From a virus, in the UHGV virus genome UHGV-0212646: DNA of 43,550 nt; one strand, 5' to 3'. The notes beneath the pieces are model-generated. The model had not been told where the DNA came from. It was given only the letters and a program-made list of their open reading frames with translations, and made no database searches. This document shows positions 4,344 through 34,855 of this stretch, piece after piece. The position numbers and the translations under genes are program-made. How positions within the stretch are numbered: the first letter of the stretch is position 1; the number at the start of each line of letters is the position of its first letter.

Positions 4344-4487
4344 ATAATAGAGAAAAACCAGCCCCTGCGCCAACAGGAACGGCTTTAAATTAAAGAAAGT
4401 AATCGGAAAAGTAATGTATTGAATCGCCTCTGGCGTTTTAATAAAGTAAACCAACGATTAGTGTTTTTACAGAATGGTGGTGACCTA

Positions 4488-4724
4488 TTGGAAATACAAT
4501 ATTCTAAACAAGCAATCAAATTTTTAAAGAAACAAGACCTGCCGACCAGAAAGCGTATCATAACTGCGATCAATGCACTTCCTGCCGGAGATGTAAAATC
4601 TTTGCAAGGACGCTCTGGATACCGCCTCCGGATTGGCGACTATAGAGTAATTTTCGATAAAGAAGGAAATATTCTCTATATTGAAAAAATTGATAACCGC
4701 GGACAAGTTTATAAAGGAGTGTGA
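4488..4724 (+). CDS. type II toxin, RelE/ParE family
   Basis: GGTGGTGA SD, then TTG at 4488. Product MEIQYSKQAIKFLKKQ...SGYRLRIGDYRVIFDKEGNILYIEKIDNRGQVY matches RelE/ParE core motifs. Confidence 0.8.
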   Translation: MEIQYSKQAIKFLKKQDLPTRKRIITAINALPAGDVKSLQGRSGYRLRIGDYRVIFDKEGNILYIEKIDNRGQVYKGV

Positions 4725-4729
4725 TTTAT

Positions 4730-4975
4730 ATGACTGCAATAAAAGAGCGTATTATAGGTGCTGTCTCCCTGATGAGTGATCAGGAGGCTGCTGTATTTTG
4801 GAAGTTAATCCAGAACCGCTATATTATCACTCCCAAGACCCAAGATGCCTGGGATAGTATTGAGGAAATCGAACCTGACGAATTTGATCTGGCTATGCTC
4901 AGAGAAATAGAAAATGATCCTGATTGCCACGAGTTTGTTTCCTCCAAAGATGTTATGGATGAGCTTGGTTTGTAG
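4730..4975 (+). CDS. putative cognate antitoxin (unclassified, acidic C-terminus), encoded after the toxin
   Basis: AAAGGAGTG SD, then ATG at 4730, 5 nt after the toxin stop. Acidic C-terminus EEIEPDEFDLAMLREIENDPD. Confidence 0.4.
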   Translation: MTAIKERIIGAVSLMSDQEAAVFWKLIQNRYIITPKTQDAWDSIEEIEPDEFDLAMLREIENDPDCHEFVSSKDVMDELGL

Positions 4976-4993
4976 TTGATTTTCAAAACAAAT

Positions 4994-5032
4994 AAAAACC
5001 GCCCGGTGTTACCAGCACCGAACGGCTTTCAC
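4994..5032 (+). terminator. imperfect hairpin after the TA operon
   Basis: aaaaaccgcccggtgttaccagcaccgaacggctttc. Confidence 0.3.
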
Positions 5033-5167
5033 ATAGATTCTCTTGCCGGATACTCCAGCCATGATAAATCCAGACCAAACATCTGAATTATATCATTTCT
5101 GGTACATCCTGGCAAGGGGTGTATTTTTTACACCCATTTTTCATACAATCCACAAGGAGATGATATA

Positions 5168-6646
5168 ATGCCGCCATTATCCACCAGTAATTCACAGACT
5201 TTGGAGATCGGCGCCGCCTACATCCGCGTCAGCACCGACGATCAGACAGAGCTTTCCCCGGATGCCCAGCTGCGTGTCATTCTTGATGCCGCCAAAGCGG
5301 ACGGGTTCGTGATCCCTAAAGAATATATCTTTGAAGAGAAGAAAGGCATATCCGGCCGGAAGGCTGACAACCGCCCGGAGTTCCAGCGTATGATCGCTAT
5401 TGCCAAGTCTCAGAAACCCGCTCCCTTCAAACGGCTGTACCTCTGGAAGTTTTCCCGATTCGCCCGGAATCAGGAGGAAAGCACCTTCTACAAGGGGATC
5501 TTACGAAAAAAGTGCGGAATCGAGATCAAAAGCATATCAGAGCCCATTATGGACGGAATGTTCGGCCGACTGATTGAAACGATTATCGAATGGTTTGACG
5601 AATACTATTCTTTTAACCTGTCCGGGGAGGTCATGCGCGGCATGACAGAAAAAGCCCTCCGGGAAGGCTATCAGACCTCCCCTTCTCTGGGATACAAGGC
5701 CGCCGGCGAGGGCAAACCATTTCTCATTGACGAGATGACTTACCCGATTGTGGAGTATATCTTCCGTACCTATCACGATGGCCGGGATATGACTGCCACT
5801 GCAAGGGCCGCCAACGCCATGGGCTACCGAACCCGCCACGGCAATCTCTTTGATCGTCGGGCAGTTTACCGCATTTTAACGAACCGTTTTTACAATGGAG
5901 AGGTTGTCTGGAACGGGATCACCTTTCAGGGATCGCATGAAACCCGCCCCGCCGTAACCTCCATTTACGAGAACGTCCAAAATCGGATAACATCTGAATA
6001 CCGCCCCCTCAAGCGCCGCGAGGCCTCTGCTAACGCGCATTGGCTGTCAGGGCTTTTAACCTGCAGCGTCTGTGGCAGCAGTCTGGGCTTTAACCGCTCC
6101 AACAATCAGAAAAAGCGTCCTGACTTCTTTCAATGCTGGAAGTACGCCAAGGGCGTCCACCCTGGTTCCTGCTGCGTATCTGCCCGGATTGCAGAGCAAA
6201 CCGTGCTGAGTTCGTTGGAAAATGCTATGGGGCAGAACTATCTTGAGTATGAATATATCCCGAAAACAGCTGTGGAAACACACGGAGAGGAGCTGGCTTT
6301 AAAAGAGGCTTTGGATCGGATCGCCATCAAAGAGCAGCGCATCCGGGAGGCATATGAAAATGAAATTGATACCCTGGAAGAATATAAGCAAAACAAAATC
6401 CGTCTGAATGTCGAACGGGAGCAGCTGACCGCCGCACTGGAACAACTTCGTCAGAAGATCCAGCAGTCCACATCCGCGCCGCCCAGTCAGGCCGAGGTCA
6501 TGGCCAAAATCTCCTGTGTGTATCAGGTGCTTTCTGATCAGGAAGTCGATAACGAAACCAAAGCCAATGCCCTCCGAGCCATCTGTAAACAGATCGTTTT
6601 TGACCGTGAAACCAGACGTTTTATCTTTTATTACTACACATCATAA
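5168..6646 (+). CDS. int: large serine recombinase (phage integrase type)
   Basis: Resolvase catalytic N-terminal domain (AAYIRVSTDDQ...), recombinase domain, Cys-rich zinc ribbon (CSVCGSS...CWKYAKGVHPGSC), and a C-terminal coiled coil. AAGGAGA SD. Confidence 0.9.
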   Translation: MPPLSTSNSQTLEIGAAYIRVSTDDQTELSPDAQLRVILDAAKADGFVIPKEYIFEEKKGISGRKADNRPEFQRMIAIAKSQKPAPFKRLYLWKFSRFARNQEESTFYKGILRKKCGIEIKSISEPIMDGMFGRLIETIIEWFDEYYSFNLSGEVMRGMTEKALREGYQTSPSLGYKAAGEGKPFLIDEMTYPIVEYIFRTYHDGRDMTATARAANAMGYRTRHGNLFDRRAVYRILTNRFYNGEVVWNGITFQGSHETRPAVTSIYENVQNRITSEYRPLKRREASANAHWLSGLLTCSVCGSSLGFNRSNNQKKRPDFFQCWKYAKGVHPGSCCVSARIAEQTVLSSLENAMGQNYLEYEYIPKTAVETHGEELALKEALDRIAIKEQRIREAYENEIDTLEEYKQNKIRLNVEREQLTAALEQLRQKIQQSTSAPPSQAEVMAKISCVYQVLSDQEVDNETKANALRAICKQIVFDRETRRFIFYYYTS

Positions 6647-7212: not shown

Positions 7213-7875
7213 TTAACCCGCCAGCATCTTCGTCGAGTTCTCCTGGATGAATCCCTTGATCTGGTCATATCCCCAACCGCAGCTTATAAGGCTACTCACC
7301 AGCATCTCCATGGATTCAATCTGTTTCAGTTCATCCGCTGTCACATATTCCCGAATACTTTCTTTCCTCTTCACCCCATACTGCTCCTGCAGTTCCTTCA
7401 TGGTCTTTCCGAAGATGGTCTTGTAGATAAGCTTGGTGTAATTGGGATACATGAATTTCTTATGGGGACTGTCAGTCACTTTCATTTTTATGGTATCGGT
7501 CAGGATATGGCGGACAATAATTCCCTTGTCCCTTTCAATCTGCCACTGTTGCCGTTCTGTATAGATTCTCTTGAGTTCTTTTTCCATAGCATTGAAAGCT
7601 TTGATATAGTCCAGTTTCCATCTTAAAGCTTTCTCGCCTGTAAATCCCATAGCAAGTAATGAAAATCCATCTCTGTCCATTTCATACATAGGATATTCTT
7701 TTCCACGGTTTTTGTATGTAGTCAGGGTGAAAAAACTGGCTGCCGAATTTTCGGCCGTGAGATTTCTAATAGCGTCCAATACATGCCTGTGTTCTTTCTC
7801 AAAATGTTCTGCCACTTTAAGGCTTGTGGTAATCAATCTTTCTTCATATCTTTTCCCGGTAATTTCTACTAACAT
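7213..7875 (-). CDS. phage regulatory protein Rha
   Basis: N-terminus TSLKVAEHFEKEHRHVLDAIRNL is the Rha family signature. GGAAGGA SD. Confidence 0.8.
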   Translation of the reverse strand: MLVEITGKRYEERLITTSLKVAEHFEKEHRHVLDAIRNLTAENSAASFFTLTTYKNRGKEYPMYEMDRDGFSLLAMGFTGEKALRWKLDYIKAFNAMEKELKRIYTERQQWQIERDKGIIVRHILTDTIKMKVTDSPHKKFMYPNYTKLIYKTIFGKTMKELQEQYGVKRKESIREYVTADELKQIESMEMLVSSLISCGWGYDQIKGFIQENSTKMLAG

Positions 7876-7971: not shown

Positions 7972-8763
7972 TTAAAACTCGCCCGGCCCCTGTACCCCGC
8001 TGGCGTCAGTTACATACAAGGCGCATTCCAACGGGTGGCCTGCCGCCGGCTCAAAGTAATACCATTTCCCATCGATCTGATGCCAGTCCGTTAATGCGTA
8101 GCCATCCTGGTTAAAATAATACTTGTGATGGTTAATCACCTGCCAGCAGGACTTATAATAGGTGTGGGGCGTGTCTGCGTACCACCATCCGTTACTGTCA
8201 TGGTGCCAGCCTAATACGTATTCTGATTGGCTGACAATCGACCAGTCCGGCAGCCCGTAGCCAAGAATTTTCCCATAAGACCGGCTGTAAGCCTTCCGGC
8301 ACACCCCGCCGCCGTTTTCAATCACACCGGATGCACCGGACGTATTGCCCTCAATGGTCTTGATCCGCGTTGCCGTCACCTCTGTAACGATCCCTGTATG
8401 ATAGGCTCTCTGGCCGTTGGTAAAGAAGATCACTGCCCCAGGCTCCGGCACCGCGGCCCACCGGCCTGCCTTTTTAAACTGGTTGACCCCTGTGGGGCAA
8501 TAATGGTACAGGCTGCCTCCCAGAAGTTTCTTAGCCTCCTCAAGCCCAAATGCCTGCACAAATACCTCTGATACGAACATGGCGCACCAGGGCTGGGCCT
8601 GCAGGTTCTGACCGGTATGTATCTTATAGTCCCTGGCAAAGCAGGTGAAATTGCCGCTGCCGGCATTGGCCGTAAAATCATCCAGCTGGGCGTTGCTTTT
8701 CTTTTCCAGATAGCCGTCCCAATGGGCGGTCTGATCAATGAGTTTCTTTACTGCGTTTTCCAT
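7972..8763 (-). CDS. endolysin: CHAP/NlpC-P60-type peptidase domain plus C-terminal cell-wall-binding (choline-binding-type) repeats
   Basis: ATG at 8763 follows a GGAGG SD. Catalytic Cys (PWCAMFVSE) and His (AYHTGIV). Repeats GWHHDSNGWWY..., KYYFNQDGYALTDWHQIDGKWYYF. Confidence 0.8.
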   Translation of the reverse strand: MENAVKKLIDQTAHWDGYLEKKSNAQLDDFTANAGSGNFTCFARDYKIHTGQNLQAQPWCAMFVSEVFVQAFGLEEAKKLLGGSLYHYCPTGVNQFKKAGRWAAVPEPGAVIFFTNGQRAYHTGIVTEVTATRIKTIEGNTSGASGVIENGGGVCRKAYSRSYGKILGYGLPDWSIVSQSEYVLGWHHDSNGWWYADTPHTYYKSCWQVINHHKYYFNQDGYALTDWHQIDGKWYYFEPAAGHPLECALYVTDASGVQGPGEF

Positions 8764-8826
8764 ATGTCTTTGCCTCCAAATAAAAAAGCCCGGTACAAAA
8801 CCGGACAAAAATCATTTTCAGGTATC

Positions 8827-14562: not shown

Positions 14563-15225
14563 CTATGCCGGGATCGTAAGCACCTGTCCAGGATAGATCA
14601 AGTTGGGGTTCTTGATTCCTGGATTAGCTGCCGCAATTTTCTTGTATTGGCTGCCATTTCCATAATACTTCTTTGCAATCCCCCAAAGGGTATCGCCAGA
14701 CTGGACGGCATGGGTCTTGTTTTCTGTCACTGCGGGATTGGTTTCTGCAGACGCAGACGTATCTTCCTGCTTTACTGTAGCTGCTGCCGTCTGTACCGCT
14801 ACATACCGTTTTCCCGGTGCCTTGTATTCCAAAAGCTTGATCGTCAGGTACTTATCCCCCTCTTCTCCAGCTTTTTCTACAGCCTCCACGCTTTTTACCA
14901 GTACCATAATACTGATATCATCTGTAATATCGTTAGAGGCAATAAAGCGGATTGGCTTTAAGTCCTTCTGGGCCTTACGAAACATTTTTTCATAGTAATC
15001 CGCATCGGCCTTTGCACCGGGGTTCATATAGTGATAATCCTGACTGGGAAATTCCGCTTCAAAACTAAATTCTTCCAGGCCATAATAAGATGGGACAGAA
15101 ACCTGTCCTGTCCCAAGTACCTGGTAAGTCTCTATATTCAATTCCCGATTCCTCTTGATCTCCTCTGGATTGACGGGGAGCTTGTATTTCTTATTCCCAT
15201 ATTTAAAATAAACTGAATATGACAT
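14563..15225 (-). CDS. LysM-domain tail protein (XkdP-like)
   Basis: C-terminal LysM: HAVQSGDTLWGIAKKYYGNGSQYKKIAAANPGIKNPNLIYPGQVLTIP. Confidence 0.75.
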   Translation of the reverse strand: MSYSVYFKYGNKKYKLPVNPEEIKRNRELNIETYQVLGTGQVSVPSYYGLEEFSFEAEFPSQDYHYMNPGAKADADYYEKMFRKAQKDLKPIRFIASNDITDDISIMVLVKSVEAVEKAGEEGDKYLTIKLLEYKAPGKRYVAVQTAAATVKQEDTSASAETNPAVTENKTHAVQSGDTLWGIAKKYYGNGSQYKKIAAANPGIKNPNLIYPGQVLTIPA

Positions 15226-17201
15226 TATCCCGGCACCCCCTCTGGAGCTGTGGCGATCACCTCTTTTAGACGATCAATCATATGACCCACCACACCGTCA
15301 GTGTCAGCTTCTTTTGTGATAGGACCGGTAAATTCCACCTTGATATTAGGCGCAAGGGTATTTTGGGCGATCCGGGCCACGTAATCCCGTTCTGCCAGTT
15401 TCCGCATCCACTCGATGTCCTCTTTATCTGTCTCAACCTTTACGGCACCGCCTTTACCTGTACCTTTTACAGTGGCAGGACTACCAGCAGTAGCAAACTG
15501 TGAAAGATCAATGCCGGATCCGCCAGCCCCATCCAAATTTGGATTGAAACCTGAAAACAGGTTTGAGGCTTTGTCCGCCAGACCGCTTCCTATCTCATAT
15601 CCTTTGTTGGCAAAATCAGCGCCATTAACAAAATCCTTTTTCTTCACGACTTCATTCCAGTCAGAAGCGGTTTTTGCAGAAGCTGCTGCTTTTTCAATTC
15701 CTGCCTTAAAATTATCCAATCCTGCTGAAATCTGAACCTCTACTCCTGGAATACGATTTATAATAGCTTCAACCGACCGGGCCATTTCTGTCATATATCC
15801 AACCACGGTTATGGCCAGATCATAAAAGAGGATTTTAACGGCAGCAACAGGGTGATTCCAAACATTGGCAAAGAAATTGACTACCTCTGCAATAACATTG
15901 TAGATGAATATAAAGCTATTTGTTGCAGATGCCGCAAGCGCGCCTAATGCTCCGCCAATTATTCCTGTTCCTGAAAGGGTTGCTCCCGTAAAATGATTGA
16001 CTGCTGCAACTCCGGCATAGAAAGCAGCTGCAAGTACTAAAACCAGCCCTACAATCCATACAATAGGGCACGCGTATAATGCAGAATTAAGTCCTAACTG
16101 CGCTGTTGTTTCTGCCCAAGTTGCTCCAGTTGTTGCCCACAATGATAATGCATATAACCCTGCACCTATTGCCTGAGCCCCAAATCGAGCCGCTGATATA
16201 AGTGCCAAACCATTTAAAGCCAACTGTGCTCCTGCATAAATTCCCAAAGCCACAGCCGCCGCCCAAATAAACGGTGATACCATCGGCCAGGCAGCAATGC
16301 AAAAATCTATAAATCCTTCTGTTGCTTCCCCTGCCAGATAAATCAAACCAATAAAGTTATTTAAGGCGGTTTGTACGCCTGCTGAATTCAAAGCGGTATT
16401 TACCTTTTCAAACACCTCTGCAAAAGCCTGTGTGCCTGCATTCTTAATTTTCTGCCAGGTATCTGCAAACGTAGGCGTCATCTGCGAAAATTTTCCATTA
16501 ATCTCATCTGCGGCTTGGAACATCGCCCCTTTGATGATATCTGCCGTAATTGCGCCGTCTGAGGACAGTTCTTTTAATTCTGCCTTAGTCTTTCCCATAT
16601 ACTGAGCGATTGCATCAGCTACCATAGGGGCGTTCTCCATTACGGCAACAAATTCATCACCTTGTAGTCTTCCAGACGTCATAGCCTGCGTCAGCTGGAG
16701 GAAAGCGGAGTTCTGTTCAGCCGTACCTGCCCCTGACACCTTGAGGGATTTGGTAAGCAGTTCTGTAAACCCTACTGCTTCCAGATTGCTCCCAAAGGTA
16801 TCGCCTGCCAGCATTTTAAGCTTTGCTGTCGCATTGGCCATCTCTGTATAATCGCCGCGAGATCGGTCCGCTGCCGCAAAAATATCTTTTTGGAGAGTCC
16901 TCTGTTCTTCCAGGCTTCCAGTGATCATAGCCAGTCTGGCGTTTGTATTGGTGTATGTATCTGTCAGGTCCATTCCCTTTTTTACCGCCGCCAGACTCAC
17001 TACTGTTTTAACGAGCCTTGATAGGCTTGAGTTGGCTACATCGGCAGCGGCTCCCGTACGTCCTAAAGAACCATTGAATCCATCCGTGTTTTTACTGGCT
17101 CCTAAAATAGCCTTAGCTGCCTTATCGGTGTTTTCAACAATCTTCTTGATCTGGCTGCTGTAACCATCCATCAGACGAAACATTGCGTTTAAAGTCGGCA
17201 T
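15225..17201 (-). CDS. tail tape measure protein
   Basis: 658 aa, Ala/Gly-rich hydrophobic central segment, position after the chaperone. GGAAGGTGGG SD. Confidence 0.8.
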   Translation of the reverse strand: MPTLNAMFRLMDGYSSQIKKIVENTDKAAKAILGASKNTDGFNGSLGRTGAAADVANSSLSRLVKTVVSLAAVKKGMDLTDTYTNTNARLAMITGSLEEQRTLQKDIFAAADRSRGDYTEMANATAKLKMLAGDTFGSNLEAVGFTELLTKSLKVSGAGTAEQNSAFLQLTQAMTSGRLQGDEFVAVMENAPMVADAIAQYMGKTKAELKELSSDGAITADIIKGAMFQAADEINGKFSQMTPTFADTWQKIKNAGTQAFAEVFEKVNTALNSAGVQTALNNFIGLIYLAGEATEGFIDFCIAAWPMVSPFIWAAAVALGIYAGAQLALNGLALISAARFGAQAIGAGLYALSLWATTGATWAETTAQLGLNSALYACPIVWIVGLVLVLAAAFYAGVAAVNHFTGATLSGTGIIGGALGALAASATNSFIFIYNVIAEVVNFFANVWNHPVAAVKILFYDLAITVVGYMTEMARSVEAIINRIPGVEVQISAGLDNFKAGIEKAAASAKTASDWNEVVKKKDFVNGADFANKGYEIGSGLADKASNLFSGFNPNLDGAGGSGIDLSQFATAGSPATVKGTGKGGAVKVETDKEDIEWMRKLAERDYVARIAQNTLAPNIKVEFTGPITKEADTDGVVGHMIDRLKEVIATAPEGVPG

Positions 17202-17204
17202 TCT

Positions 17205-17805
17205 TTCCCACCTTCCTAAGACAGTTTAGCCGCCTGTCTCTTTTCTTCTTTAATCCGTAGATCAATGCTCGCATAAATAAATGCCCGCTCCCTGGGGTCT
17301 ACCGGATCATCTGCCCCGCAGATTCCGGCGAGCACCCCGGGCCTGATATGAAGTCTTTGCAGGGCGAAATGAGCGTAATTCATCTCTCCATCGCCCTGCT
17401 CAATCAGTTTTTTGCCTCTTCGATATCCTCGTTGATATCTTTATCCAATCCAGAGAGGTCAAGAGCCGCCTGCATCAGAGTCGCGAACTCACCCACATAG
17501 AGCATTTTTGCCAGGGTTTTGGGAGCGCCTAAGGTTCCCCATCTTTTCTGAAGATCTGCATTGTTTAAGTCTGGCTCTACTACTGCTGTAGCCGTCAACT
17601 CACGATTGTAATTGATCCGGTCAAACACTTCATTACCCTTCTTATCCCTTTTCGTATGTTTCCGGATAAACTCCTCGTTTTCCTGCTGAGTAATGGGCCG
17701 GATTACAAAGGGAACCGGCTTGCCATTCTCCTGAAAACGGTTTGATACAATCACCTCTCTGTTTTCTGCCTGTACTGGGTGCAAAAATGCATTTAAACTA
17801 CTCAT
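17205..17805 (-). CDS. tail assembly chaperone; short form 17404..17805, long form via a -1 frameshift at A_AAA_AAC followed by TGA
   Basis: Slippery heptamer rc(17407-17413) sits directly before the stop. The -1 frame stays open for 66 more codons to 17205. Confidence 0.65.
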
Positions 17806-17821: not shown

Positions 17822-17852
17822 TTTCTTAATTTTTGTATAAAAAGAACGCCCC
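17822..17852 (-). terminator. intrinsic terminator between the accessory block and the chaperone gene
   Basis: aagaacg-tcctccgggg-cgttctt then tttttataca on the minus strand. Confidence 0.6.
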
Positions 17853-17871
17853 GGAGGACGTTCTTTTAGGT

Positions 17872-18126
17872 TTATGCAGTTCTTCGTTCTTCATAGCCAC
17901 GAATAAAACAATATAACATTCTATTTAATTTCGGATCATTCATCCTTAAGACCTTCAAGACAAGCGACGCCTGTTCAAGTTCCAATTCTGACAATTCAGA
18001 AAATCTTTTACTATCATCCATCTTAGCGCAAATGTTAACTAATAGGCTAATATGCTCTAAAACCATTTTCCGTCGTACCCTGCGACAATTTTGAGTTATT
18101 TCCTCTCGTATTTCCATCATTTTCAT
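17872..18126 (-). CDS. small putative regulator (84 aa), translationally coupled to the antirepressor gene
   Basis: AGGAGGTG SD. TAATG stop/start overlap with the upstream gene. Confidence 0.4.
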   Translation of the reverse strand: MKMMEIREEITQNCRRVRRKMVLEHISLLVNICAKMDDSKRFSELSELELEQASLVLKVLRMNDPKLNRMLYCFIRGYEERRTA

Positions 18127-18956
18127 TACGCCACCTCCTGATAACAAACCCGGCACTTATTAACACTGCCATTTGCAAGCCGGAACTCGATCAATGAGGG
18201 ATAGCCGTTCTCTTCCAGCCATTCCTGAACCTTTTCGAGAACACTTTCTTTGTACTGAACGGTCACACCGTCATGGCCGTTCCGGCTGTAAGCTGTCTTT
18301 ACAATTTCATCTGTAAAAAGGTCGATTTTCTGGATGATGGCGCTTACTGCTTTATCATGTGGTCTACCGGACTCAGAATAGATGCCGAGTTTCTTTGCCA
18401 TAGTAGTGCAGTCCCATAACGTCTGTGTAGTGCTGTCTGTAATCAACGGAATCTGAATGTCAATGTCGGCCTGTTCCTTGTAAAGCCGTTTCGCCTCTGC
18501 CGCGATGAACATCGGGTCAACTCCTGCATCTTTGAAAATGCCGCTGACGGTCTTCACAAGCATGTTGGCGGCGGAGAGGTTCTTTTTCTTCTTTTCGGGC
18601 TTCTGGGTGATGCCCTCTCTGATCGTTTTCTCCTTATACTTCTTTTCCACCTGGATGAAGTAACGGCGTACTTGCTTGCCTTTCTCATTACGCTCCAACA
18701 TGGCCATTTCCTTGGCTGTATCAAGTTTAATGATATGGTCTATTTTAGTCTGTCCGGAAGGTGCTAAAATTTTAGCGGCTTCATAATCCTCTTTTTCTAC
18801 TGCCTCACAATCGCCCAAACGGTTGCGAATCCAATCGCGATAATTACTCTTTACTTCCAAAACTGAATGAAGTTCTGAACCATAAACTACTTTCTCGCCG
18901 GTGCTGGTTTCGTATACTGGTACTAACTCATTTTCAATTACTTTTAAATTCTGCAT
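18126..18956 (-). CDS. phage antirepressor, AntA N-terminal domain + KilA-C domain
   Basis: AAAGGAG SD, then ATG at 18956. LVPVYETSTGEKVVYGSELHSVLEV...RRYFIQVEKKY is AntA-like. Confidence 0.7.
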   Translation of the reverse strand: MQNLKVIENELVPVYETSTGEKVVYGSELHSVLEVKSNYRDWIRNRLGDCEAVEKEDYEAAKILAPSGQTKIDHIIKLDTAKEMAMLERNEKGKQVRRYFIQVEKKYKEKTIREGITQKPEKKKKNLSAANMLVKTVSGIFKDAGVDPMFIAAEAKRLYKEQADIDIQIPLITDSTTQTLWDCTTMAKKLGIYSESGRPHDKAVSAIIQKIDLFTDEIVKTAYSRNGHDGVTVQYKESVLEKVQEWLEENGYPSLIEFRLANGSVNKCRVCYQEVA

Positions 18957-18981
18957 AATAAAAACTCCTTTCAAAAAATAC

Positions 18982-19011
18982 TTGCCAAAAGGAGAAATAC
19001 AGTGCTATTAT
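18982..19011 (+). promoter_or_regulatory. promoter TTGCCA-N18-TGcTATTAT for the convergent sRNA-b
   Basis: Extended -10. Confidence 0.45.
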
Positions 19012-19017
19012 TTATAT

Positions 19018-19082
19018 ACTCCTTTTGGGGTGTGGAGCAACCATTTCACTTTGGTCGGTGGGGTTGCTCCTCTTTTTTTATT
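19018..19082 (+). ncRNA. candidate cis-antisense sRNA-b ending in the terminator hairpin ggagcaacc-N19-ggttgctcc-T9
   Basis: The + strand hairpin plus U-run overlaps the stop codon of RHH gene b on the minus strand. Confidence 0.4.
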
Positions 19083-19254
19083 TTAGGTCATCCTCCAGTT
19101 TTTTAATTCCCCGTCTTATTGCTTCTGTCTTTGCCACTTTTTCCTGTTCACAGTATCGTTCAAGAATATTGTTACTTTCAATATCAAGCCTTACATGAAT
19201 AGGTTTTGACTTTGGATTCTCTACTGGTGGTCTTCCTGTTCTTGGGCTCATCAT
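19078..19254 (-). CDS. ribbon-helix-helix (CopG/Arc-like) small DNA-binding protein with an RTGRP AT-hook-like N-terminus, paralogue b
   Basis: MMSPRTGRPPVENPKSKPIHVRLDIESNNILERYCEQEKVAKTEAIRRGIKKLEDDLK. Upstream TTGACT-N17-TATATT promoter on the minus strand. Confidence 0.55.
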   Translation of the reverse strand: MMSPRTGRPPVENPKSKPIHVRLDIESNNILERYCEQEKVAKTEAIRRGIKKLEDDLK

Positions 19255-19334
19255 ATCACCCACTTTCTGTAGCCCATAAATATAATATAATTGATGTAGC
19301 CCAATAAGTCAAGCACTGTTTTCTCAAATTCTTC

Positions 19335-19363
19335 TTGAAAGAGGCTTCCTTTGCTGATATACT
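19335..19363 (+). promoter_or_regulatory. promoter TTGAAA-N17-TATACT for the convergent sRNA-a
   Basis: Near-consensus. Confidence 0.5.
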
Positions 19364-19369
19364 ATATTT

Positions 19370-19441
19370 ATCAGAGAGAAACCTCTTTGGTGTATTAGAG
19401 ATTCGTGATACTTGGTAGGTGGAACGAATCTCTATTTTTTT
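19370..19441 (+). ncRNA. candidate cis-antisense sRNA-a ending in the terminator hairpin agagattcg-N19-cgaatctct-T7
   Basis: Overlaps the stop codon of RHH gene a. Loop ACUUGGUAGGUGG is conserved with sRNA-b, and the stems covary. Confidence 0.4.
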
Positions 19442-19605
19442 ATTTTGGCATATACTTCACGGATTCCTTGACGAATTACATCGGATTTTGACATTCCTGT
19501 TTCTTTACAGCAATACTCTAAAATCTCTATATCTTCATCTGACATTCTGATTCTAGTCTCGTGCTTTTTTGGATTATCCGTTGGTCTGCCTGTTCTTGGC
19601 GACAT
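19432..19605 (-). CDS. ribbon-helix-helix small DNA-binding protein, paralogue a (57 aa)
   Basis: GGAGGAGGG SD, then ATG at 19605. Product MSPRTGRPTDNPKKHETRIRMSDEDIEILEYCCKETGMSKSDVIRQGIREVYAKIKK. Below the ORF-track cutoff. Confidence 0.55.
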   Translation of the reverse strand: MSPRTGRPTDNPKKHETRIRMSDEDIEILEYCCKETGMSKSDVIRQGIREVYAKIKK

Positions 19606-19703
19606 TTTCTACCCTCCTCCTAATATATAAGTGTAGGGTTTCAGTACCCAACAGCCAGTTGGGACTTAATCCTCTCATTGTTTAAGCTGTATAATGATTA
19701 GGC

Positions 19704-19898
19704 ATTGGTATGACGACACCTCCTAGGACCACTTTAGGTGTCCGCAAGAAAGCCAGTCAGCCAGCCTATCATTTGCAGCCGTTCGATTTATGCAGGTTGG
19801 ACTGTCCTTGTACATGTCCGTTTGATACCCCAGGAGATTGAATAAGCAGTGAGGAATGCTGGATACCATGCAAATTCATTTTCAGGAGGTACATTAGG
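19704..19898 (+). ncRNA. candidate IS110 bridge/guide RNA region (5' flank of the transposase), downstream of a TGtATAAT -10
   Basis: Structured ~190-nt leader, e.g. gacacctcctaggaccactttaggtgtc. Assignment rests on knowledge of the IS110 family, not on homology. Confidence 0.3.
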
Positions 19899-21113
19899 AT
19901 GTACAACGCTGTCGGTATTGATGTCTCAAAGGGCAAGAGCACCATCGCAGTCCTGCAGCCCGGAGGCGTCATTGTCAGGAAACCCTTTGATGTTTTTCAC
20001 ACTTCCCAATCCTTAAAAGAACTATCAAATTATCTGGCTTCACTTGAAGGGGATACAAGGATTGTAATGGAGTGTACTGGCAGATACCATGAGTCCATGG
20101 CTAACTCCCTCTCTAATGCCGGGTTTTTTGTAACTGTCGTCAATCCGCATCTGATTAAAAACTTTGGTAACAATACGTTGCGCAAGGTCAAATCTGACCC
20201 TGCTGATGCTAAAAAGATAGCACGCTATACCCTTGACAACTGGGCTGAACTGCGGCAGTATTCATGTATGGACAATACACGTAACCAATTGAAAACCTTA
20301 AATTCACAATTCAGCTTCTTTATGAAGCAAAAGGTTGCCGCAAAGGCAAACCTGATTGCACTGTTGGATAATACATACCCCGGTGTAAATAAACTGTTCA
20401 ACAGCCCTGCCCGTGAAGATGGCAGTGAAAAATGGGTCGATTACGCTTACTCATTCTGGCATGTGGACTGTGTCCGTAAAACCGGCTTGAAAGCTTTTAC
20501 AGTGCGCTATGAAGCTTTCTGCAGGAAACACCATTATATTTATCAGCCTTCCAAACCAGAAGAACTGTTTAACGCCTCTAAAGAGCTTGTTGCCGTGTTC
20601 CCAAAGGAGACGTCCTATAAGCTTCTGATCCAGCAGAGTATCCAGCAGCTCAATCTTGCCTCTGCCCATATCGAACAGCTCCGCAGGGAGATGAATGCAC
20701 TTGCTTCCACGCTCCCAGAATACGAGGTTGTCATGGGCATGTATGGCGTGGGCAAAACTTACGGTCCCCAGCTCATTGCTGAGATTGGCGATGTTTCAAG
20801 ATTTACCCATCGGGAGGCAATCACTGCTTTTGCAGGTGTCGATCCCGGTGTGGAGCAGTCAGGGCAGCACAACTCAAAGAGCAACAAAGCTTCCAAATGT
20901 GGAACCGGCAGGCTCCGTAAGACCCTGTTCCAGGTCATGACCACCCTGCTCCAGAATGCCCCGGAGAATGAACCTGTCTACCAGTTTCTGAACCGGAAGC
21001 GTTCCGAAGGAAAACCTTACTATGTGTACATGACTGCTGGTGCGAATAAGTTCCTCCGCATCTACTACGGCAAGGTAAAAGCACATCTGCGCAGTCTGGA
21101 ACAAAACGAATAA
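19899..21113 (+). CDS. IS110 family transposase (DEDD N-terminal domain + Transposase_20 C-terminal domain)
   Basis: N-terminus AVGIDVSKGKSTIAVL. C-terminus GVGKTYGPQLIAEIGDVSRFTHREAITAFAGVDPGVEQSG. Confidence 0.9.
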   Translation: MYNAVGIDVSKGKSTIAVLQPGGVIVRKPFDVFHTSQSLKELSNYLASLEGDTRIVMECTGRYHESMANSLSNAGFFVTVVNPHLIKNFGNNTLRKVKSDPADAKKIARYTLDNWAELRQYSCMDNTRNQLKTLNSQFSFFMKQKVAAKANLIALLDNTYPGVNKLFNSPAREDGSEKWVDYAYSFWHVDCVRKTGLKAFTVRYEAFCRKHHYIYQPSKPEELFNASKELVAVFPKETSYKLLIQQSIQQLNLASAHIEQLRREMNALASTLPEYEVVMGMYGVGKTYGPQLIAEIGDVSRFTHREAITAFAGVDPGVEQSGQHNSKSNKASKCGTGRLRKTLFQVMTTLLQNAPENEPVYQFLNRKRSEGKPYYVYMTAGANKFLRIYYGKVKAHLRSLEQNE

Positions 21114-21367
21114 TCATTCCGTCTATTACGGCTTTCTTTTTGACCGGCTGATGAGGCGGTCTTAGAGTTGTGCCATAAAATCACTTCACAAAAATTTTCA
21201 AAAAGTGCTTGACTTTTTATTAGCAGGCTTTCTTTTGGTGACACATATATGATATTATATGGTGACACAAAAGTCAAGAGGTTTTTCATCTTCTTCACGC
21301 CTACCTCGTGAAATCAAAAAGGCCCAGCCTTTCGCTGAACCTCTTTCTCATTAAATATAATTGATTT

Positions 21368-22108
21368 TTATAATCCTAACAGCTGTTTCTTTTTTATTTC
21401 AAATTCCTCCTGCGTGATAATCTCCTCATCTAATAATTTCTTATACTTTAGTATTTCATCAGCTCCAGATACTACTTCTACATGATCCCCTTGTTTTTGT
21501 TCATTTTGGATTAATGTCAATTCTGTTAATATTTTCTGTAATGTCCCATAATAAACAGAATGCATCATACTTCCAGATTTTATATTCCCATTTGTTATTA
21601 TATTGATATATATTTCAGGATAAAGAGGGCTTTTCGTAATAAATTTTACTCTCAGTTCTTTTGTAACGCTTTTACTTCTTTTTTCTCCTGTAATTCCACC
21701 TACAATAGCCCCGACTCCGCCAAATAAAGCTCCCCCTACAACAGCACGTCCTATTCCCCCTTTACTTACTGTATCGCCATTCTCGATCACTTCATATCCT
21801 ACCATTTCATCAAAGGAAAACACTGTTCTATATGCTGGAATCTGCCATAAGTGATTCGCATAATCAATATATAAATATTTTTCTACCTTTTTATCTGGTA
21901 AAAATATTTTTGTGTATTCCTCTGACTTTTTTATTGCTTCTATGCATCTTCTAATTCTGTCAGACGAAACTTCTTTCCAATTGAGAAGAATTAAACCACT
22001 TCTCATTCGACAGTCTTTGCACACAAATCCATCTGCAATTTGCTTATCTCCCTTATGGCTTCCACAAATGCAACAAACTCCGCTCTTTGAAAATAATCCC
22101 ACACCCAT
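21368..22108 (-). CDS. AT-rich moron: zinc-ribbon + glycine-zipper + C-terminal SHOCT-domain protein
   Basis: CCICGSHKGDKQIADGFVCKDCRMRSG zinc ribbon. GGALFGGVGAIVGGITG glycine zipper. C-terminal ADEILKYKKLLDEEIITQEEFEIKKKQLLGL is SHOCT. Roughly 38% GC. Confidence 0.6.
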   Translation of the reverse strand: MGVGLFSKSGVCCICGSHKGDKQIADGFVCKDCRMRSGLILLNWKEVSSDRIRRCIEAIKKSEEYTKIFLPDKKVEKYLYIDYANHLWQIPAYRTVFSFDEMVGYEVIENGDTVSKGGIGRAVVGGALFGGVGAIVGGITGEKRSKSVTKELRVKFITKSPLYPEIYINIITNGNIKSGSMMHSVYYGTLQKILTELTLIQNEQKQGDHVEVVSGADEILKYKKLLDEEIITQEEFEIKKKQLLGL

Positions 22109-22110
22109 TT

Positions 22111-22162
22111 CCTCCTCTTATAAGATACAAGCATTATACTGCAAGAGGAGGAAAACAGCAAG
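22111..22162 (-). promoter_or_regulatory. TTGCTG-N17-TATAAT promoter embedded in a 10-bp-stem hairpin whose 3' arm is the moron SD
   Basis: tcctcctctt / aagaggagga arms, with -10 in the loop. Read-through transcripts from the tube gene would sequester the SD, while promoter-initiated ones would not. Confidence 0.4.
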
Positions 22163-22163
22163 C

Positions 22164-22643
22164 TTATCTCATATTCTCCGGCAATGTATAACTCTCCAGA
22201 TCGTCCAGGTCATCAAACGTAAAATCCGTATCCGTCGTGTTCAGATCCTCACTTCCATCCTCCAGATACGCAACAGGTACCTTTGCCAGGATACAGTCAC
22301 GCATTACCACCACACGCCGGCCAATGGTAGACGCCGGATCCTCATTTGTGGTCTGGATGCTGATCGTGGGAGTCTTCCCCTCTTTGACGTACTGCTGGTA
22401 AATCGCCAGAGCAGCCGGGCTTACATTATACATAGTTATGCTTCCCTTTCCCTCTGCCGCAACTACCTTATGCTGCTTCATCCGGTGGCCCAGAAGTTTC
22501 TTGCCTGTCACCGTAAATTCAATATTGGATTCAATCTTAGAGAGTTCAAAGAAGTACCGGTTCTGTCCGTCTACCGTGATGTAGGCGCTGCCCTCACTTC
22601 CAGTCACCAGGTCTTTGATTTTTGTGTAGTTCTTTCCTGACAT
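22164..22643 (-). CDS. tail tube protein (XkdM-like)
   Basis: Size and position after the sheath. Acidic C-terminus. Confidence 0.7.
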   Translation of the reverse strand: MSGKNYTKIKDLVTGSEGSAYITVDGQNRYFFELSKIESNIEFTVTGKKLLGHRMKQHKVVAAEGKGSITMYNVSPAALAIYQQYVKEGKTPTISIQTTNEDPASTIGRRVVVMRDCILAKVPVAYLEDGSEDLNTTDTDFTFDDLDDLESYTLPENMR

Positions 22644-22657
22644 ATTCTTTTCACCTC

Positions 22658-23707
22658 CTATGACAGATTTACGGTGATGTAAATCTTTTCTACACTGTCC
22701 ACTGGCTGAGTGAATACATCTACCACCACAGCATCGGAATCTGTTCCTGCATTCACTGTGATATCATCTGTTTCAAAATTCTGGATAGCAGCCATATTCT
22801 GAAGTGTGGTAAAATAATCCACCAATGCAGCTTTCAGCAGGGACCGTCCATCTGCGTTGTTATTGACTTTTCCCACATAGTTGCTTTCAAAGATAGTGGA
22901 GATATCGTTAGCAATATTATCGATCGTCCTGATAACCCGGTTCTTGGTGAACATCTTGCCTTTTTCTGCCGTTACTGTAGTCAGGGAATTGATATCATAC
23001 ACCACAGTTACGTTCTGGGCGCTGTCCGCTTTGAAGATCAACTTACCCGCTTTGACCGCATTCTCCATCTCTGCCTTTGTCATACGGGGATCCACATCGA
23101 TAGCACCCACATACTTCATGCCTGTGTTGGAAGTTGTAATGCTGGCCCCCGCTGTAGCTCCTGCTACCCACGCTGTAGTCTCCGCTGCAGTTAGGACTGT
23201 GCCGTCTGTCATGACAATCCCCTGTACCACATTGATGATTCCCTCTGAATCCGCCACATGGTTTGCCAGTACTGCCTGACACTTGACACCCTCGTCATCT
23301 CTCATAGCCTTAATCCATGTTGTAATCGCAGTCTTATTAGCAGACGCCGTTTCCGGCTCTGTATCGTAAGGGTAGCACAGTGTATTAAACTGCACTGTCT
23401 TCAGTTTCTCCAACGCCGTATTGACGGCTTCCGTATTGTGTGTTTCCGGCAGCTTGTAGATCAATACAGTTTTTGCCTTTTTAAGGGCCTCTGTAGCCAG
23501 TTTCTTATCATCCGCCGTAGCTTTTTCCGGATATGCCTGTTCTGTGGCTGTGATGGTATACATCTTTCCATCCTCGCCCACAGACATCTCCTGTAAAATC
23601 ACCACAATACCTCTGTCTCCCGGAGTGATCGACAAGGGCTCGTTTGTCTGGATGTTGATATAGGCCCCGGGTAGTACTTTGTTCTGAGATTCCCATGTGC
23701 CTGCCAT
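22658..23707 (-). CDS. contractile tail sheath protein (XkdK-like)
   Basis: 349 aa, PBSX-type sheath sequence features, position. Confidence 0.75.
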   Translation of the reverse strand: MAGTWESQNKVLPGAYINIQTNEPLSITPGDRGIVVILQEMSVGEDGKMYTITATEQAYPEKATADDKKLATEALKKAKTVLIYKLPETHNTEAVNTALEKLKTVQFNTLCYPYDTEPETASANKTAITTWIKAMRDDEGVKCQAVLANHVADSEGIINVVQGIVMTDGTVLTAAETTAWVAGATAGASITTSNTGMKYVGAIDVDPRMTKAEMENAVKAGKLIFKADSAQNVTVVYDINSLTTVTAEKGKMFTKNRVIRTIDNIANDISTIFESNYVGKVNNNADGRSLLKAALVDYFTTLQNMAAIQNFETDDITVNAGTDSDAVVVDVFTQPVDSVEKIYITVNLS

Positions 23708-27496: not shown

Positions 27497-29188
27497 TCAG
27501 ACCACCTCCAATTCAATGGTATTCCCTTTCCTTGATAATACTCTATAAATACATTCCTTGTCAAGCAATAGCTCTCTTTGTTTTTCAAAATGACTTAGCT
27601 TTTCAATATATGCTGCGTTAGCTCCCTTTTTCACATAAATAACAATTCTATATTTTGCATTAAATGAACGATTCTCAATAACTGACGTACTAAAAAACTG
27701 CTTCGGTCTAAATAGGCCATTTTCTGCTATACCTGAAGATGGGTCTATATCCATTCCTCTATATGCAATAACATCATACTTTAGCCTATTTTTCTTCAGT
27801 CCTCTTGATATAGCTTCGGCATATTCTTGTAATTTCGCATTTTCTGGAGCATCTCCCCGGAGCATAGCATTTAATCTCTCAAAGAAACGATTCGGCTTTT
27901 TATCCCCAGAATTATATGCATACTTCTGGATTGCTCTCTTTTCCTTATCTGTTAGCTCTTGAATCCACCCTTCTGAATCTTTTCTTAATATCTGTACTAC
28001 CTGTCCTGATGGTACAGCTTTAAAATTTGCAAGTGGCCTCTTTGAATCTACATATTCTCCACTGGTCATTCCGCCAGTCTTGAATCTGAGATTTTTCCAT
28101 TTCCTTGCCTTTATTCCATATTTTTTCTGGTTTTCTTCATCCAACGAATGCTCTGCCAATCGCTCATACTTCTCTGCCTGTCGCTGTACATACTGCTGTC
28201 TCCATTCCTTCCAAGTCATACCTTCCGAAACCTCAATAGGATTTCCATCCGTATCTCTGGCTGCCCGGGTCAAATCTTCTGTAGGAGTATCATCATAGTG
28301 CGGGACTGTTGTACATCGGCACAGCGGATGGAATGGTGGCATATTTATCCCGATAATTTCTTTCCCCACCTCGTACACCTTATTGTCCAGTTCCCCACAG
28401 ACACCGCAGGTCTTGCTGTCCAATGTGGCGAGGATCTCATATTTTTCTACGCCGTCCTCTTTATAGCCTGCATGGGCAGCCTGACTCATCAGGAAGGAAC
28501 TCTCTGTATGCAGGAGTCGGTACGCATCAAACTTCTTCGAGTTCATTTTCTTGGCAAACTCATTCGTCAGCATAGATGGATGCTTGCCCTGAATCAGCAT
28601 CGTGGTCACCGCCTCCATCAGCTGGGCCTGCAGGTGATCCTTCTGTCTCCACAAACGCTCTGAAAATACCGCACCGTTGAATGGATATTCCAGCAGTTTT
28701 TCCACAACTGTAGGGTTGATTTGTGCAAACGCCGCGTGAAAACCGTGATACTGGTCAATATTGTACCAAGTACGGTAATACGCCTCCCCATAGACCTCAT
28801 ACATGGTCTTTTCTGCCTCTGCCTGATAATCTGTGACATACAGCTGCCTGAGAAGAGCATCTATCTGGGCCTCCAGGGCCTGGTAGCGGGTAATCCGAGC
28901 CTTGATGGACATATTATTGACCGTCTGGTTGTACCTGCCAATATTTTGCATTACCAGATTGATATACTCTTTCAACTCCCCCACCTGCTCCGCGTCCAGC
29001 TTTTTCTGGGCTGAGGCATAGGAGAGGCCGTTTTCCTCTGCATAGCGGAAATAGAACGCCTCAATGATCTTCTGCAGTTCCCGCCTCGTCTGATTAAATG
29101 CCTTTTCCAACCGGGTGAAATACTGATTCATCTTCATTTCCCCCGCTTGGTACATGAGTTCCTGACGTTTCTGCCAATAATTCGCCAT
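27497..29188 (-). CDS. SPP1 gp7 / Mu F-like minor head protein fused to a C-terminal ADP-ribosyltransferase (exoenzyme-type) domain
   Basis: N-terminal ~340 aa are Phage_Mu_F-like. The C-terminal ~220 aa carry the ART triad: R (VIAYRGMD), STS (FFSTSV), QxE (EKQRELL). Confidence 0.7.
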   Translation of the reverse strand: MANYWQKRQELMYQAGEMKMNQYFTRLEKAFNQTRRELQKIIEAFYFRYAEENGLSYASAQKKLDAEQVGELKEYINLVMQNIGRYNQTVNNMSIKARITRYQALEAQIDALLRQLYVTDYQAEAEKTMYEVYGEAYYRTWYNIDQYHGFHAAFAQINPTVVEKLLEYPFNGAVFSERLWRQKDHLQAQLMEAVTTMLIQGKHPSMLTNEFAKKMNSKKFDAYRLLHTESSFLMSQAAHAGYKEDGVEKYEILATLDSKTCGVCGELDNKVYEVGKEIIGINMPPFHPLCRCTTVPHYDDTPTEDLTRAARDTDGNPIEVSEGMTWKEWRQQYVQRQAEKYERLAEHSLDEENQKKYGIKARKWKNLRFKTGGMTSGEYVDSKRPLANFKAVPSGQVVQILRKDSEGWIQELTDKEKRAIQKYAYNSGDKKPNRFFERLNAMLRGDAPENAKLQEYAEAISRGLKKNRLKYDVIAYRGMDIDPSSGIAENGLFRPKQFFSTSVIENRSFNAKYRIVIYVKKGANAAYIEKLSHFEKQRELLLDKECIYRVLSRKGNTIELEVV

Positions 29189-34078: not shown

Positions 34079-34114
34079 GGAACGTCTGGGTGGAGATCCC
34101 TAAACCAGGCTAAC

Positions 34115-34186
34115 GGATCCTACAGGAATCGAACCTGTGACACGGTGGTTAACAGCCACCTGCTCTGCCAGCTGAGCTAAGGATCC
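34115..34186 (-). tRNA. tRNA-Asn (anticodon GTT), phage-encoded, no encoded CCA
   Basis: Cloverleaf hand-folded: acceptor GGATCCT/AGGATCC, D-stem GCTC/GAGC, anticodon stem GGTGG/CCACC with loop CTGTTAA, T-loop TTCGATT. Confidence 0.8.
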
Positions 34187-34348: not shown

Positions 34349-34756
34349 TTACTTAATTCCACAACTTTTTAGATACTTATCTCGGATATGTAACCTCGGA
34401 TAGTCTGGGTTATCCCGATACCCCAGTCTTTTTGCAACCTCTTTCCATGGCAGCCCATCCAGATAGAAATATTCAAATACTTTCCTGGTAGCCGTATCCT
34501 CGATTGCCTCAACCCACTTTCTAATTTCTTCTGCTTCTGCCTCTTTCTGATCCAGAAGCCGGCGCTTTCTTCTATATCGTTCATCATCAAAGCCCACCAC
34601 TGCCTGCGGACGTTCAAAGCCCTTACTATAGTCTTTTATGACGCTGCTCCCCAGCCCTGCATCTGTTGTATTCATTTCATTCAGTTCCCACCTCAGGATC
34701 GCAATTTCCTGCATCAGTCTCTTGTAGCTTTCCAAGCGCTTTATTGTCATTTCCAA
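34349..34756 (-). CDS. phage late transcriptional activator (sigma-70 region-4-like; RinA/ArpU-class)
   Basis: AGGAGGTG SD, then TTG. C-terminus KVFEYFYLDGLPWKEVAKRLGYRDNPDYPRLHIRDKYL. Located upstream of terS. Confidence 0.5.
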   Translation of the reverse strand: MEMTIKRLESYKRLMQEIAILRWELNEMNTTDAGLGSSVIKDYSKGFERPQAVVGFDDERYRRKRRLLDQKEAEAEEIRKWVEAIEDTATRKVFEYFYLDGLPWKEVAKRLGYRDNPDYPRLHIRDKYLKSCGIK

Positions 34757-34855
34757 CGGTATCACCTCCTGTATCTCTCATCCGGGCATAATGACGTATA
34801 CGCATAGGCCGGCATCCGGGCTGACCACTCGTCCAGCCTCGGCCCCCGGATCGCC

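Follow-up and report, generated by a model that had tools for sequence, protein, structure and literature searches.

In phage P22, the 'ant moron' places mnt and arc, which encode ribbon-helix-helix (RHH) proteins, the sar RNA, ant and the exclusion gene sieA ahead of the tailspike gene in the late operon; it is traversed by late transcription, and its content varies greatly between P22-like relatives (PMC2629481). Two plasmids offer further comparisons. The RHH autorepressor CopG of pMV158 is cotranscribed with the gene that it regulates, and the countertranscript RNAII provides a second control, acting on repB (PMC5717011). In pT181 the countertranscript acts by kissing-hairpin attenuation (PMC3753616), and there is no Cop protein (PMC5717011). 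Here we describe a 4.3-kb block of accessory genes in the UHGV virus genome UHGV-0212646; the whole stretch of DNA analysed, 43,550 nucleotides, is called the window. We think it probable that this block is a mosaic ant moron lodged in a cargo hot-spot, the tube/chaperone junction of the tail operon, of a temperate Lachnospiraceae myophage, and that its antirepressor is locked by an RHH protein and an antisense RNA, a mechanism that we infer from the sequence. It would consist of a SHOCT moron, two tandem control cassettes, an AntA-domain gene with a coupled 84-aa open reading frame (ORF), a later IS110 insertion and the terminator that the family usually has behind the tube gene. A Gram-positive equivalent of the P22 ant moron, assembled from exchangeable parts, is its best description.

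The late genes of the window lie on the minus strand, and the block separates the tail tube gene from the XkdN-type chaperone gene (coordinates of all features are given in Table 1). Its ORFs run in the direction of the late operon except for the IS110 transposase. Leaving out the insertion sequence (IS), its G+C content is 38.4%, against ~47% in the flanking structural genes. An earlier reading of this DNA, here called the original prediction, had proposed such a lower-GC accessory block between tube and chaperone; all of the genes that it named are present on the expected strands, and the comparison with relatives that it called for agrees. From a chaperone-protein search we took 33 related IMG/VR loci and mapped the window's proteins onto them; 30 show both genes. 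The tube-chaperone gap is only 17-68 nt in 18 of these 30, with tube identities of up to 94%, so that empty junctions exist in close relatives. The other 12 carry exactly one gene, drawn from three unrelated kinds: a Zn-ribbon/transmembrane protein, a 230-aa CxxC protein, and a 50%-identical homologue of the SHOCT protein, which is the sole junction cargo in L014, L015 and L040. The full block was seen only in near-identical contigs, retrieved through the exact tube protein, and is not a conserved core among the relatives.

Two further loci carry regulatory cargo at the same place. In L053, whose tube protein is 83% identical, both junction arms are shared with the window (the post-tube promoter-like sequence on one side, the terminator and chaperone Shine-Dalgarno (SD) sequence on the other), and the interior is different: a 150-aa protein, one RHH gene, an antisense RNA, an Ant protein (69% identical) and two small ORFs. 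In L077, a distant myophage with a 30%-identical tube protein, the junction (3381-6471) holds a lipoprotein gene, a divergent pair of cI/cro-like helix-turn-helix (HTH) genes and two Ant-type genes, a switch-like module. Given the empty, single-gene, L053 and L077 junctions, we conclude that the tube/chaperone junction is a cargo hot-spot and that the window's block is one mosaic occupant of it. A megablast search of the 9-kb region against 50,697 GenBank phages gave only IS110-like matches, in two unannotated faecal contigs, and is uninformative on the junction.

The P22 ant moron appears to be the closest functional analogue of this arrangement. In both P22 immI and the window, morphogenesis genes enclose an antirepressor cassette under its own regulation, with a pair of small RHH repressors, an antisense RNA and an accessory gene; both show high turnover of cargo at one fixed junction and a need for late transcription to read through. 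In the window, an AntA gene and two RHH genes lie within the late operon. Unlike P22, the host genome is that of a Lachnospiraceae myophage, the site is the tube/chaperone junction, and both RHH genes are co-oriented with ant, each with its own RNA. On this analysis, a Gram-positive myophage lineage has a tail-operon hot-spot with the behaviour of the classical ant moron.

The two RHH genes had been recognised in the original prediction, which missed that each belongs to a full regulatory cassette with an antisense RNA gene. Each is preceded by a promoter whose -10 element is flanked by two exact repeats: TGTGTCACC for RHH1, found in the whole window only at 21237-21245 and 21261-21269, and TGGGCTACA for RHH2, found only at 19268-19276 and 19295-19303. 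Other units carry different repeats at the same positions around the -10, which suggests that each RHH protein represses only its own promoter, as CopG and Arc do. Control of other promoters in the window by these proteins was considered and rejected, as exact repeats occur only at their own promoters and counts with one mismatch are at chance level. RHH2 is 40% identical to RHH1 and has no Pfam match; the public gene call for it is 58 aa.

A search with the Ant protein yielded 80 viral loci, many with an RHH homologue just upstream of Ant, and 23 distinct units were aligned. Their common order is a promoter with its -10 between two 8-10-nt unit-specific repeats, then an SD and an RHH gene with an A-run at its end, followed by hairpin 1 (variable stem, conserved loop CCACCTACCAAG and variants), a long hairpin 2 and the SD of whichever gene comes next. 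All 23 units have, on the other strand, a sigma-70-like promoter that fits the consensus at 9-12 of 12 positions, with 17-nt spacing in 21 and a TG extension in 16. It lies at a fixed distance from a U-run and would yield an RNA of 62-88 nt that runs through the complement of hairpin 1 and ends at the RHH stop codon. We regard this pairing of each RHH gene with a conserved, predicted antisense RNA gene of ~65-85 nt as the main new element of the locus. In the window, both RNAs fold into two hairpins (RNA 1, -28.9 kcal/mol, z=-5.4; RNA 2, -28.1 kcal/mol, z=-5.2), the U-run of RNA 1 overlaps the RHH1 stop codon, and a covariance model of the RNA, R1, finds exactly two matches, both on the plus strand (19364-19447, 82.6 bits; 19005-19086, 56.7 bits).

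Covariation supports the structure. An alignment made with MAFFT alone (A1) left several stems mis-registered and was replaced by model-guided alignments of viral loci (A2) and of bacterial genome loci (A3), the latter comprising 23 matches (22 distinct), none used in building R1. Compensatory changes occur at 10 of 10 terminator-helix pairs in A2 (covariation 0.599, against 0.224 when shuffled and at most 0.20 when slid) and at 16 of 16 pairs overall in A3, where 97.7% of terminator-helix cells are paired (0.754, against 0.234 shuffled and at most 0.164 slid); as both alignments are fitted to the model structure, the pair counts lean towards it, with the slid controls and the independent A3 as a guard. 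The gene context recurs in the independent matches: 18 of 22 have the end of an RHH gene no more than 40 nt from the RNA 3' end, and 15 of 22 have the start of an Ant gene no more than 400 nt downstream. Relatives of the Ant cassette belong almost entirely to Lachnospiraceae and other Clostridia, and tandem units like those of the window are also present in L132, L134, L165 and L169.

Hairpins after short genes are common, and those behind the RHH genes might be mere terminators or insulators between small genes, with Ant under RHH control alone and no functional antisense RNA. The hairpin covaries equally on both strands, its Rfam matches (see below) are sub-threshold and the antisense RNAs are known as predictions only, all of which would suit this explanation. 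We nonetheless consider it improbable. A T-run is found on the antisense side alone, the sense side having A-runs before the hairpin and no U-run after it; the antisense promoter keeps its fixed distance in every unit; the loop keeps its sequence across stems that vary; covariation extends to a second hairpin, on the 5' side, which often has a GAAA tetraloop (6 of 6 pairs in A3); and, read in the antisense orientation, G-U exceeds A-C by 16:7.

Judged by sequence and structure, the predicted antisense RNAs are closest to pT181. Rfam ctRNA_pT181 (RF00242) matches unit 1 of the window at 39.7 bits and four relatives at 42.6-45.1 bits, full-length and on the predicted RNA strand, below the gathering threshold of 56; the Rfam scan gave these RNAs no other match and revealed no sequence kinship with sar. 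In its large loop, AAACUUUGGUC.GGG, the antisense terminator hairpin is near-identical to ctRNA_pT181. Both are two-hairpin antisense RNAs of ~70-90 nt, and in both an SD hairpin followed by U's may form when the RNA is bound; the window's RNA differs in being paired with an RHH gene and in having no link to rep. In wiring, pMV158 comes closest, with an RHH gene cotranscribed with a downstream gene, an intergenic countertranscript that runs to the RHH 3' end and a dual lock of protein and RNA, predicted here. The window differs from it in that the regulated gene encodes an antirepressor and not a Rep initiator, and in its setting, a prophage late operon. A PDB sequence search with RHH1 gave CopG as best natural match at E=0.8, which does not count as evidence. 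None of the three likenesses, to P22, pMV158 or pT181, amounts to membership; they are resemblances.

A broader proposal, which we hold tentatively and place a little short of an even chance, is that RHH gene and countertranscript form an undescribed, widespread family of plug-in expression locks in prophages of Clostridia, mainly Lachnospiraceae. The family would share its evolutionary origin with plasmid copy-control modules (a pT181-type countertranscript with a CopG-type repressor). Its units, each with operator repeats and an RNA stem sequence of its own, would be orthogonal to one another and stackable in tandem, and would gate antirepressors and other early genes. The limited literature that we searched holds no description of an RHH-countertranscript-antirepressor cassette in Firmicutes phages, which is not proof of novelty. 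If the proposal is right, RHH-RNA locks constitute a second, exchangeable immunity layer in Gram-positive phages. The lock on the window's antirepressor appears to join a CopG/Arc-like protein to a pT181-like countertranscript; plasmid copy control uses this combination, which is apparently new for phage antirepressors in Firmicutes. Antirepressor modules decide the induction of resident prophages by incoming phages and so shape phage-phage and phage-host dynamics in the gut. With their varied operators and RNA stems, the cassettes also offer a natural set of potentially orthogonal protein-plus-RNA switches, built on an RNA family that scores below threshold in Rfam. In L109 (~4665-5000), L113, L129 and L132, the RHH-RNA unit directly precedes a small HEXXH (ImmA/IrrE-like) or other small ORF, and Ant lies beyond it; early genes of various kinds may be under the control of the cassette.

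We propose the following mechanism for the window. In a lysogen, RHH2 would shut P2, and a constitutive antisense RNA would pair with the ant leader through a kissing loop (CUUUGGUCGGUGG) and the 5' arm of the long leader hairpin. Pairing would free an anti-SD segment (CUCCUUU/CUUCUUUC), which would fold onto the ant SD, GAAAGGAG; as this SD-containing hairpin is followed by a U-run in many members, it could also terminate transcription, as in pT181. Ant would thus be doubly locked, by RHH and by RNA, and on entry into a cell lacking both, cI-type repressors could be inactivated by a sudden surge of Ant. Within the leader, the antisense RNA has its complement in hairpin 1 and the 5' arm of hairpin 2. 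When we imitated RNA binding by forcing the target stretch unpaired in the leader fold, the probability that the SD is unpaired fell in most units, from 0.58 to 0.00 for the ant leader of the window and from 0.53-0.68 to 0.00-0.01 in L084, L100 and L116; the SD becomes occluded because the freed 3' arm pairs with it. A U-rich stretch follows the SD hairpin in about two-thirds of units.

Several points weigh against this account. Because the anti-SD shares nucleotides with the -35 box of the antisense promoter, its conservation gives no independent support for refolding, and the minimum-energy fold of the free leader has the SD paired already in several units. The antisense RNA, unlike sar or RNAII, does not overlap the ant SD; in the window it (~19018-19086) ends 46 nt upstream of that SD (18965-18972) and is not complementary to the ant ribosome-binding site in the manner of sar. 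Rfam scores for the RNA (39.7-45.1 against 56) are sub-threshold, unit 1 has lost its downstream SD and gene, and an AntA domain by itself is no proof of antirepressor activity. RNAs, promoters and terminators alike are predictions, binding of RHH proteins to the repeats is putative, and the mechanism is put together from these parts.

RHH proteins are common antitoxins, and an antisense RNA beside a potentially toxic gene resembles the logic of type I toxin-antitoxin (TA) systems. The RHH-Ant pair could therefore be a TA-like addiction module that stabilises the prophage, with Ant as toxin and the RHH protein, the RNA or both as antidote; repressor-antirepressor pairs have indeed surfaced in a TA-like genomic screen, and some Ant-domain proteins are toxic (PMC2701414). 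That same work concluded that toxin-type domains are missing from antirepressors and that these probably act via repressor complexes (PMC2701414). In our data, the promoters of the RHH genes have an autoregulated layout with operator-like repeats, there was no sign of protein-protein pairing, PADLOC gave no match, and the downstream genes vary (Ant, an ImmA-like HEXXH peptidase, small ORFs), which is better explained by a general expression-control cassette. We judge an addiction module decidedly improbable and retain the double lock on Ant as the preferred reading.

In the window, unit 1 lacks the downstream SD and gene that are present in its relative L054; the two part after AATTTGAGAAA, beyond which the window's sequence leads into the unit 2 promoter. 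Unit 2 is for this reason the direct controller of ant, and unit 1 would be an upstream layer, now also disturbed by the IS110 element. The original prediction had taken this element to be recent and to have separated parts of the block, as the sequence bears out. Its ends were set by alignment with nine other copies carrying an identical transposase in two ~5-Mb genomes (loci L043-L052). All ten copies share the same ends (19622 and 21231 in the window), although the left one is ambiguous by up to 8 nt (19614-19622), where the target resembles the IS end. The consensus flanks read ACCTCCTC-CT on the left and CT-T on the right; in the window, the element lies between the RHH1 SD (19611-19620), whose region is its target, and the promoter at 21249-21277. 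The empty site is preserved in L054, where P1 with the same two TGTGTCACC repeats is joined directly to a 96%-identical RHH1 (...GTGTCACCAAAAGAGAGGAGGGTAGGAAATG). Because L054 keeps this junction uninterrupted, we conclude that the insertion moved RHH1 1.6 kb from its promoter/operator.

The flank consensus of the ten copies, ACCTCCTCCT on the left and CTT on the right, identifies the target as the reverse complement of a strong SD, AAGGAGGAGGT. Six of the nine other copies lie 13-22 nt upstream of the start codon of an opposite-strand gene, a placement that leaves the SD with the gene and severs the promoter. This IS110 is abundant (the index of the protein collection lists its transposase in 12,367 blocks) and appears to land preferentially in strong SD sequences. 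It belongs to the IS110 family, whose members are DEDD recombinases guided by bridge or seek RNAs, by its DEDD_Tnp_IS110 and Transposase_20 domains, long non-coding left end, absence of inverted repeats, CT dinucleotide on each side, strict target, lack of long target duplications and many identical copies; its distinct trait is the SD-complement target, a preference that we did not find described in the literature searched on IS110. A search for a bridge RNA in the left end, comprising a k-mer check and one minimum-free-energy fold, turned up a 7-nt ACCTCCT (19718-19724) that matches the left half of the target and could be a target-binding guide. As an outward promoter that might drive RHH1, the left end offers only a weak TTGGGT-N17/18-TATAT(A/T) whose start falls inside the SD, an unconvincing candidate. 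At the right end, 21200-21217 on the plus strand, containing the -35 AAAAAGTGCTTGACTTTT, is 83-89% complementary to the P1 and P2 -35 regions GTGCTTGACTT (21269-21286 and 19303-19321), probably through mere similarity of promoters. Circularised IS110 ends would give TTGACT-18-TAATAT, and L044 is a copy nested within another copy of the same IS.

The insertion also raises the question of decay, since IS110 parts RHH1 from its promoter, unit 1 is without its own downstream SD and gene, and near-identical copies of the prophage hold further insertions (L005, L007, L003). On such a view the prophage is domesticated or defective and the block mere decaying junk, with no current function and a control circuit that IS110 has disabled. 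This seems to us unlikely. In the window, no ORF of the block or of the tail module is disrupted, nothing is missing from unit 2, the direct controller of ant, and the gene set is that of a full prophage. Moreover, the unchanged tube protein is indexed in 512 blocks, and the IS-bearing block comes next in all places read that extend far enough, which indicates that the IS-bearing version persists and spreads. We accordingly keep to the mosaic ant moron as the better description. The further insertions are of several kinds: IS256-like and ISL3 elements in L005 (11393-14674), at window positions ~21251 and ~21207; in L007 (from 6303), a Mu-like transposable phage that interrupts the SHOCT gene at ~21734; and a serine-recombinase element in the tape-measure gene in L003 (from 15531), at ~17113. 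In L006 (from 13031), unrelated DNA follows past the IS110 left end.

At the chaperone end of the block, the hairpin (~17867-17840) is followed by a U-run (to ~17835), UUUUUAUAC, and has the form of an intrinsic terminator, a G+C-rich hairpin followed by U's. The original prediction had placed a terminator here, rightly as to the feature and ~15 nt off in coordinates (17822-17852), and had seen it as sealing the cargo and posing a special problem of read-through. Comparison of the junctions does not sustain that interpretation. A hairpin with T-run stands immediately before the chaperone SD in 7 of 11 distinct empty junctions (L024, L031, L032, L033, L035, L036 and L037) and also after every cargo type, with the cargo always upstream; the L053 hairpin is homologous to that of the window. 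Import of the terminator by the cargo is thereby ruled out, and, because empty and occupied junctions alike carry it, partial termination or read-through after the tube gene is the family's ordinary design. Such a terminator would plausibly keep the chaperone and tape measure at lower expression than the sheath and tube. Neither reading of the sequence nor the promoter scan revealed a sigma-70-like promoter between the terminator and the chaperone SD. Late transcripts would cross the whole block and the terminator, and crossing the terminator would also be needed in most relatives, with or without cargo; the late activator is likely the small sigma-70-region-4-like protein.

At the tube end, the SHOCT gene forms a moron in the usual sense: it is missing from the junction in 18 of the 30 relatives and has a predicted promoter of its own, a terminator and a deviant G+C content (34.6%, against ~47% flanking). 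The phrog_888 match spans its full length, and the Pfam SHOCT domain (PF09851), at the very end of the C-terminus, reaches 26 bits where the cut-off is 27. The prediction that the block has promoter-like sites of its own agrees with both sequence reading and the promoter scan, though the post-tube TTGCTG-17-TATAAT falls under the scan's -35 threshold and was not called by it. This arm is near-identical in L053, and TATAAT occurs at the same place in other cargo types too. We compared the arm at window positions 22100-22166 with the equivalent position in L014, L016, L018 and L053. In three of four cargo types (SHOCT, 230-aa CxxC and the L053 150-aa protein), the TATAAT-bearing arm is followed by a protein starting MG(V)GLF or MGLF; the Zn-ribbon type (L010) begins MALIK instead. 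The shared TATAAT and 5' coding arm suggests that cassettes may be exchanged by recombination inside it.

Table 1. Features of the window discussed in the text, ordered from the sheath gene through the block to the tape measure, then elsewhere.
Feature	Position	Strand	Evidence or remark
Sheath	22658-23707	-	Pfam sheath domains
Tail tube, left junction anchor	22164-22643	-	Pfam DUF2001 E=1.4e-32; phrog_365
Promoter-like site TTGCTG-17-TATAAT	22133-22161	-	Directly after tube stop codon; read from sequence
Zn-ribbon/PH-Gly-zipper/SHOCT moron gene	21368-22108	-	phrog_888 E=9e-60; precomputed PF27000 PH_gly_zipper
Terminator-like hairpin and U-run closing the SHOCT moron	21305-21350	-	-19.3 kcal/mol, z=-3.96; then UUUUUGAUUU
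P1/O1, TTGACT-17-TATCAT with two exact TGTGTCACC repeats flanking the -10	21237-21277	-	Promoter scan; ancestral RHH1 promoter/operator
IS110-family IS, 1,610 bp	19622-21231	+	CT dinucleotide each side; 277-nt non-coding left end (19622-19898)
IS110 transposase	19899-21113	+	Pfam DEDD_Tnp_IS110 E=2e-28 and Transposase_20 E=1.6e-18
RHH1, CopG/Arc-type	19432-19605	-	Pfam RHH_1 E=1e-5; phrog_876 E=2e-17; precomputed RepB-RCR_reg (weak)
Predicted antisense RNA gene 1	19335-19447	+	Promoter TTGAAA-17-TGnTATACT (19335-19363); two-hairpin RNA ~19370-19447
P2/O2, TTGACT-17-TATATT with two exact TGGGCTACA repeats flanking the -10	19268-19312	-	Promoter scan
RHH2	19078-19263	-	phrog_876 E=5e-17; probable ATG 19254, 58 aa
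Predicted antisense RNA gene 2	18982-19086	+	Promoter TTGCCA-18-TGnTATTAT (18982-19011); RNA ~19018-19086, antisense to ant leader
AntA-domain antirepressor-like protein	18126-18956	-	276 aa from ATG 18956 (ORF to 18974); Pfam AntA E=3e-16; SD GAAAGGAG at 18965-18972
84-aa ORF	17872-18126	-	ATG overlaps ant stop codon (TAATG); also in public gene calls; longest ORF 94 aa, GTG 18156
Intrinsic-terminator-like hairpin and U-run before chaperone SD	17835-17867	-	12-bp stem, -17.3 kcal/mol, z=-5.74
XkdN-type tail assembly chaperone, right junction anchor	17404-17805	-	Pfam Phage_TAC_5 E=1e-33
Tape measure	15225-17201	-	TMP_3
Bro-N/ORF6C protein	199-933
cI-like HTH	3005-3439
Serine integrase	5168-6646
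Rha	7213-7875	-	Just after lysin gene
CHAP lysin	7972-8808
Mu F-like minor head protein	27497-29188	-	Public calls, identical contigs: Phage_Mu_F and ADPrib_exo_Tox (ADP-ribosyltransferase toxin domain)
tRNA	34114-34186	-	Rfam 66.6 bits; adjoins sigma-like regulator gene
Sigma-70-region-4-like late regulator	34349-34765

The gene behind unit 2 also matches phrog_5817, phrog_377 and phrog_2011, annotated as 'anti-repressor Ant'. Its AntA domain covers residues 31-96 and is the only domain matched; a KilAC/ANT C-terminal domain gave no Pfam match at E<=0.01, and the original label AntA-KilAC loses its second half. The 84-aa ORF that follows had been called a small regulator, a label left unsupported, as the ORF has no credible match in Pfam, PHROG or PADLOC. 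PADLOC models run against the SHOCT, RHH1, RHH2, Ant and small-ORF products likewise gave nothing credible, the lone match of 13.5 bits being at chance level.

The window looks like a complete temperate phage: besides the genes in Table 1, it encodes tail, head, terminase and replication functions. Ant had been counted as a second antirepressor, next to the Bro-N/ORF6C protein. The AntA gene is indeed present, and with Rha, which that count overlooked, the window holds three antirepressor-type genes. The Rha protein also matches the PADLOC candidate defence model PDC-S22 (E=3.5e-10).

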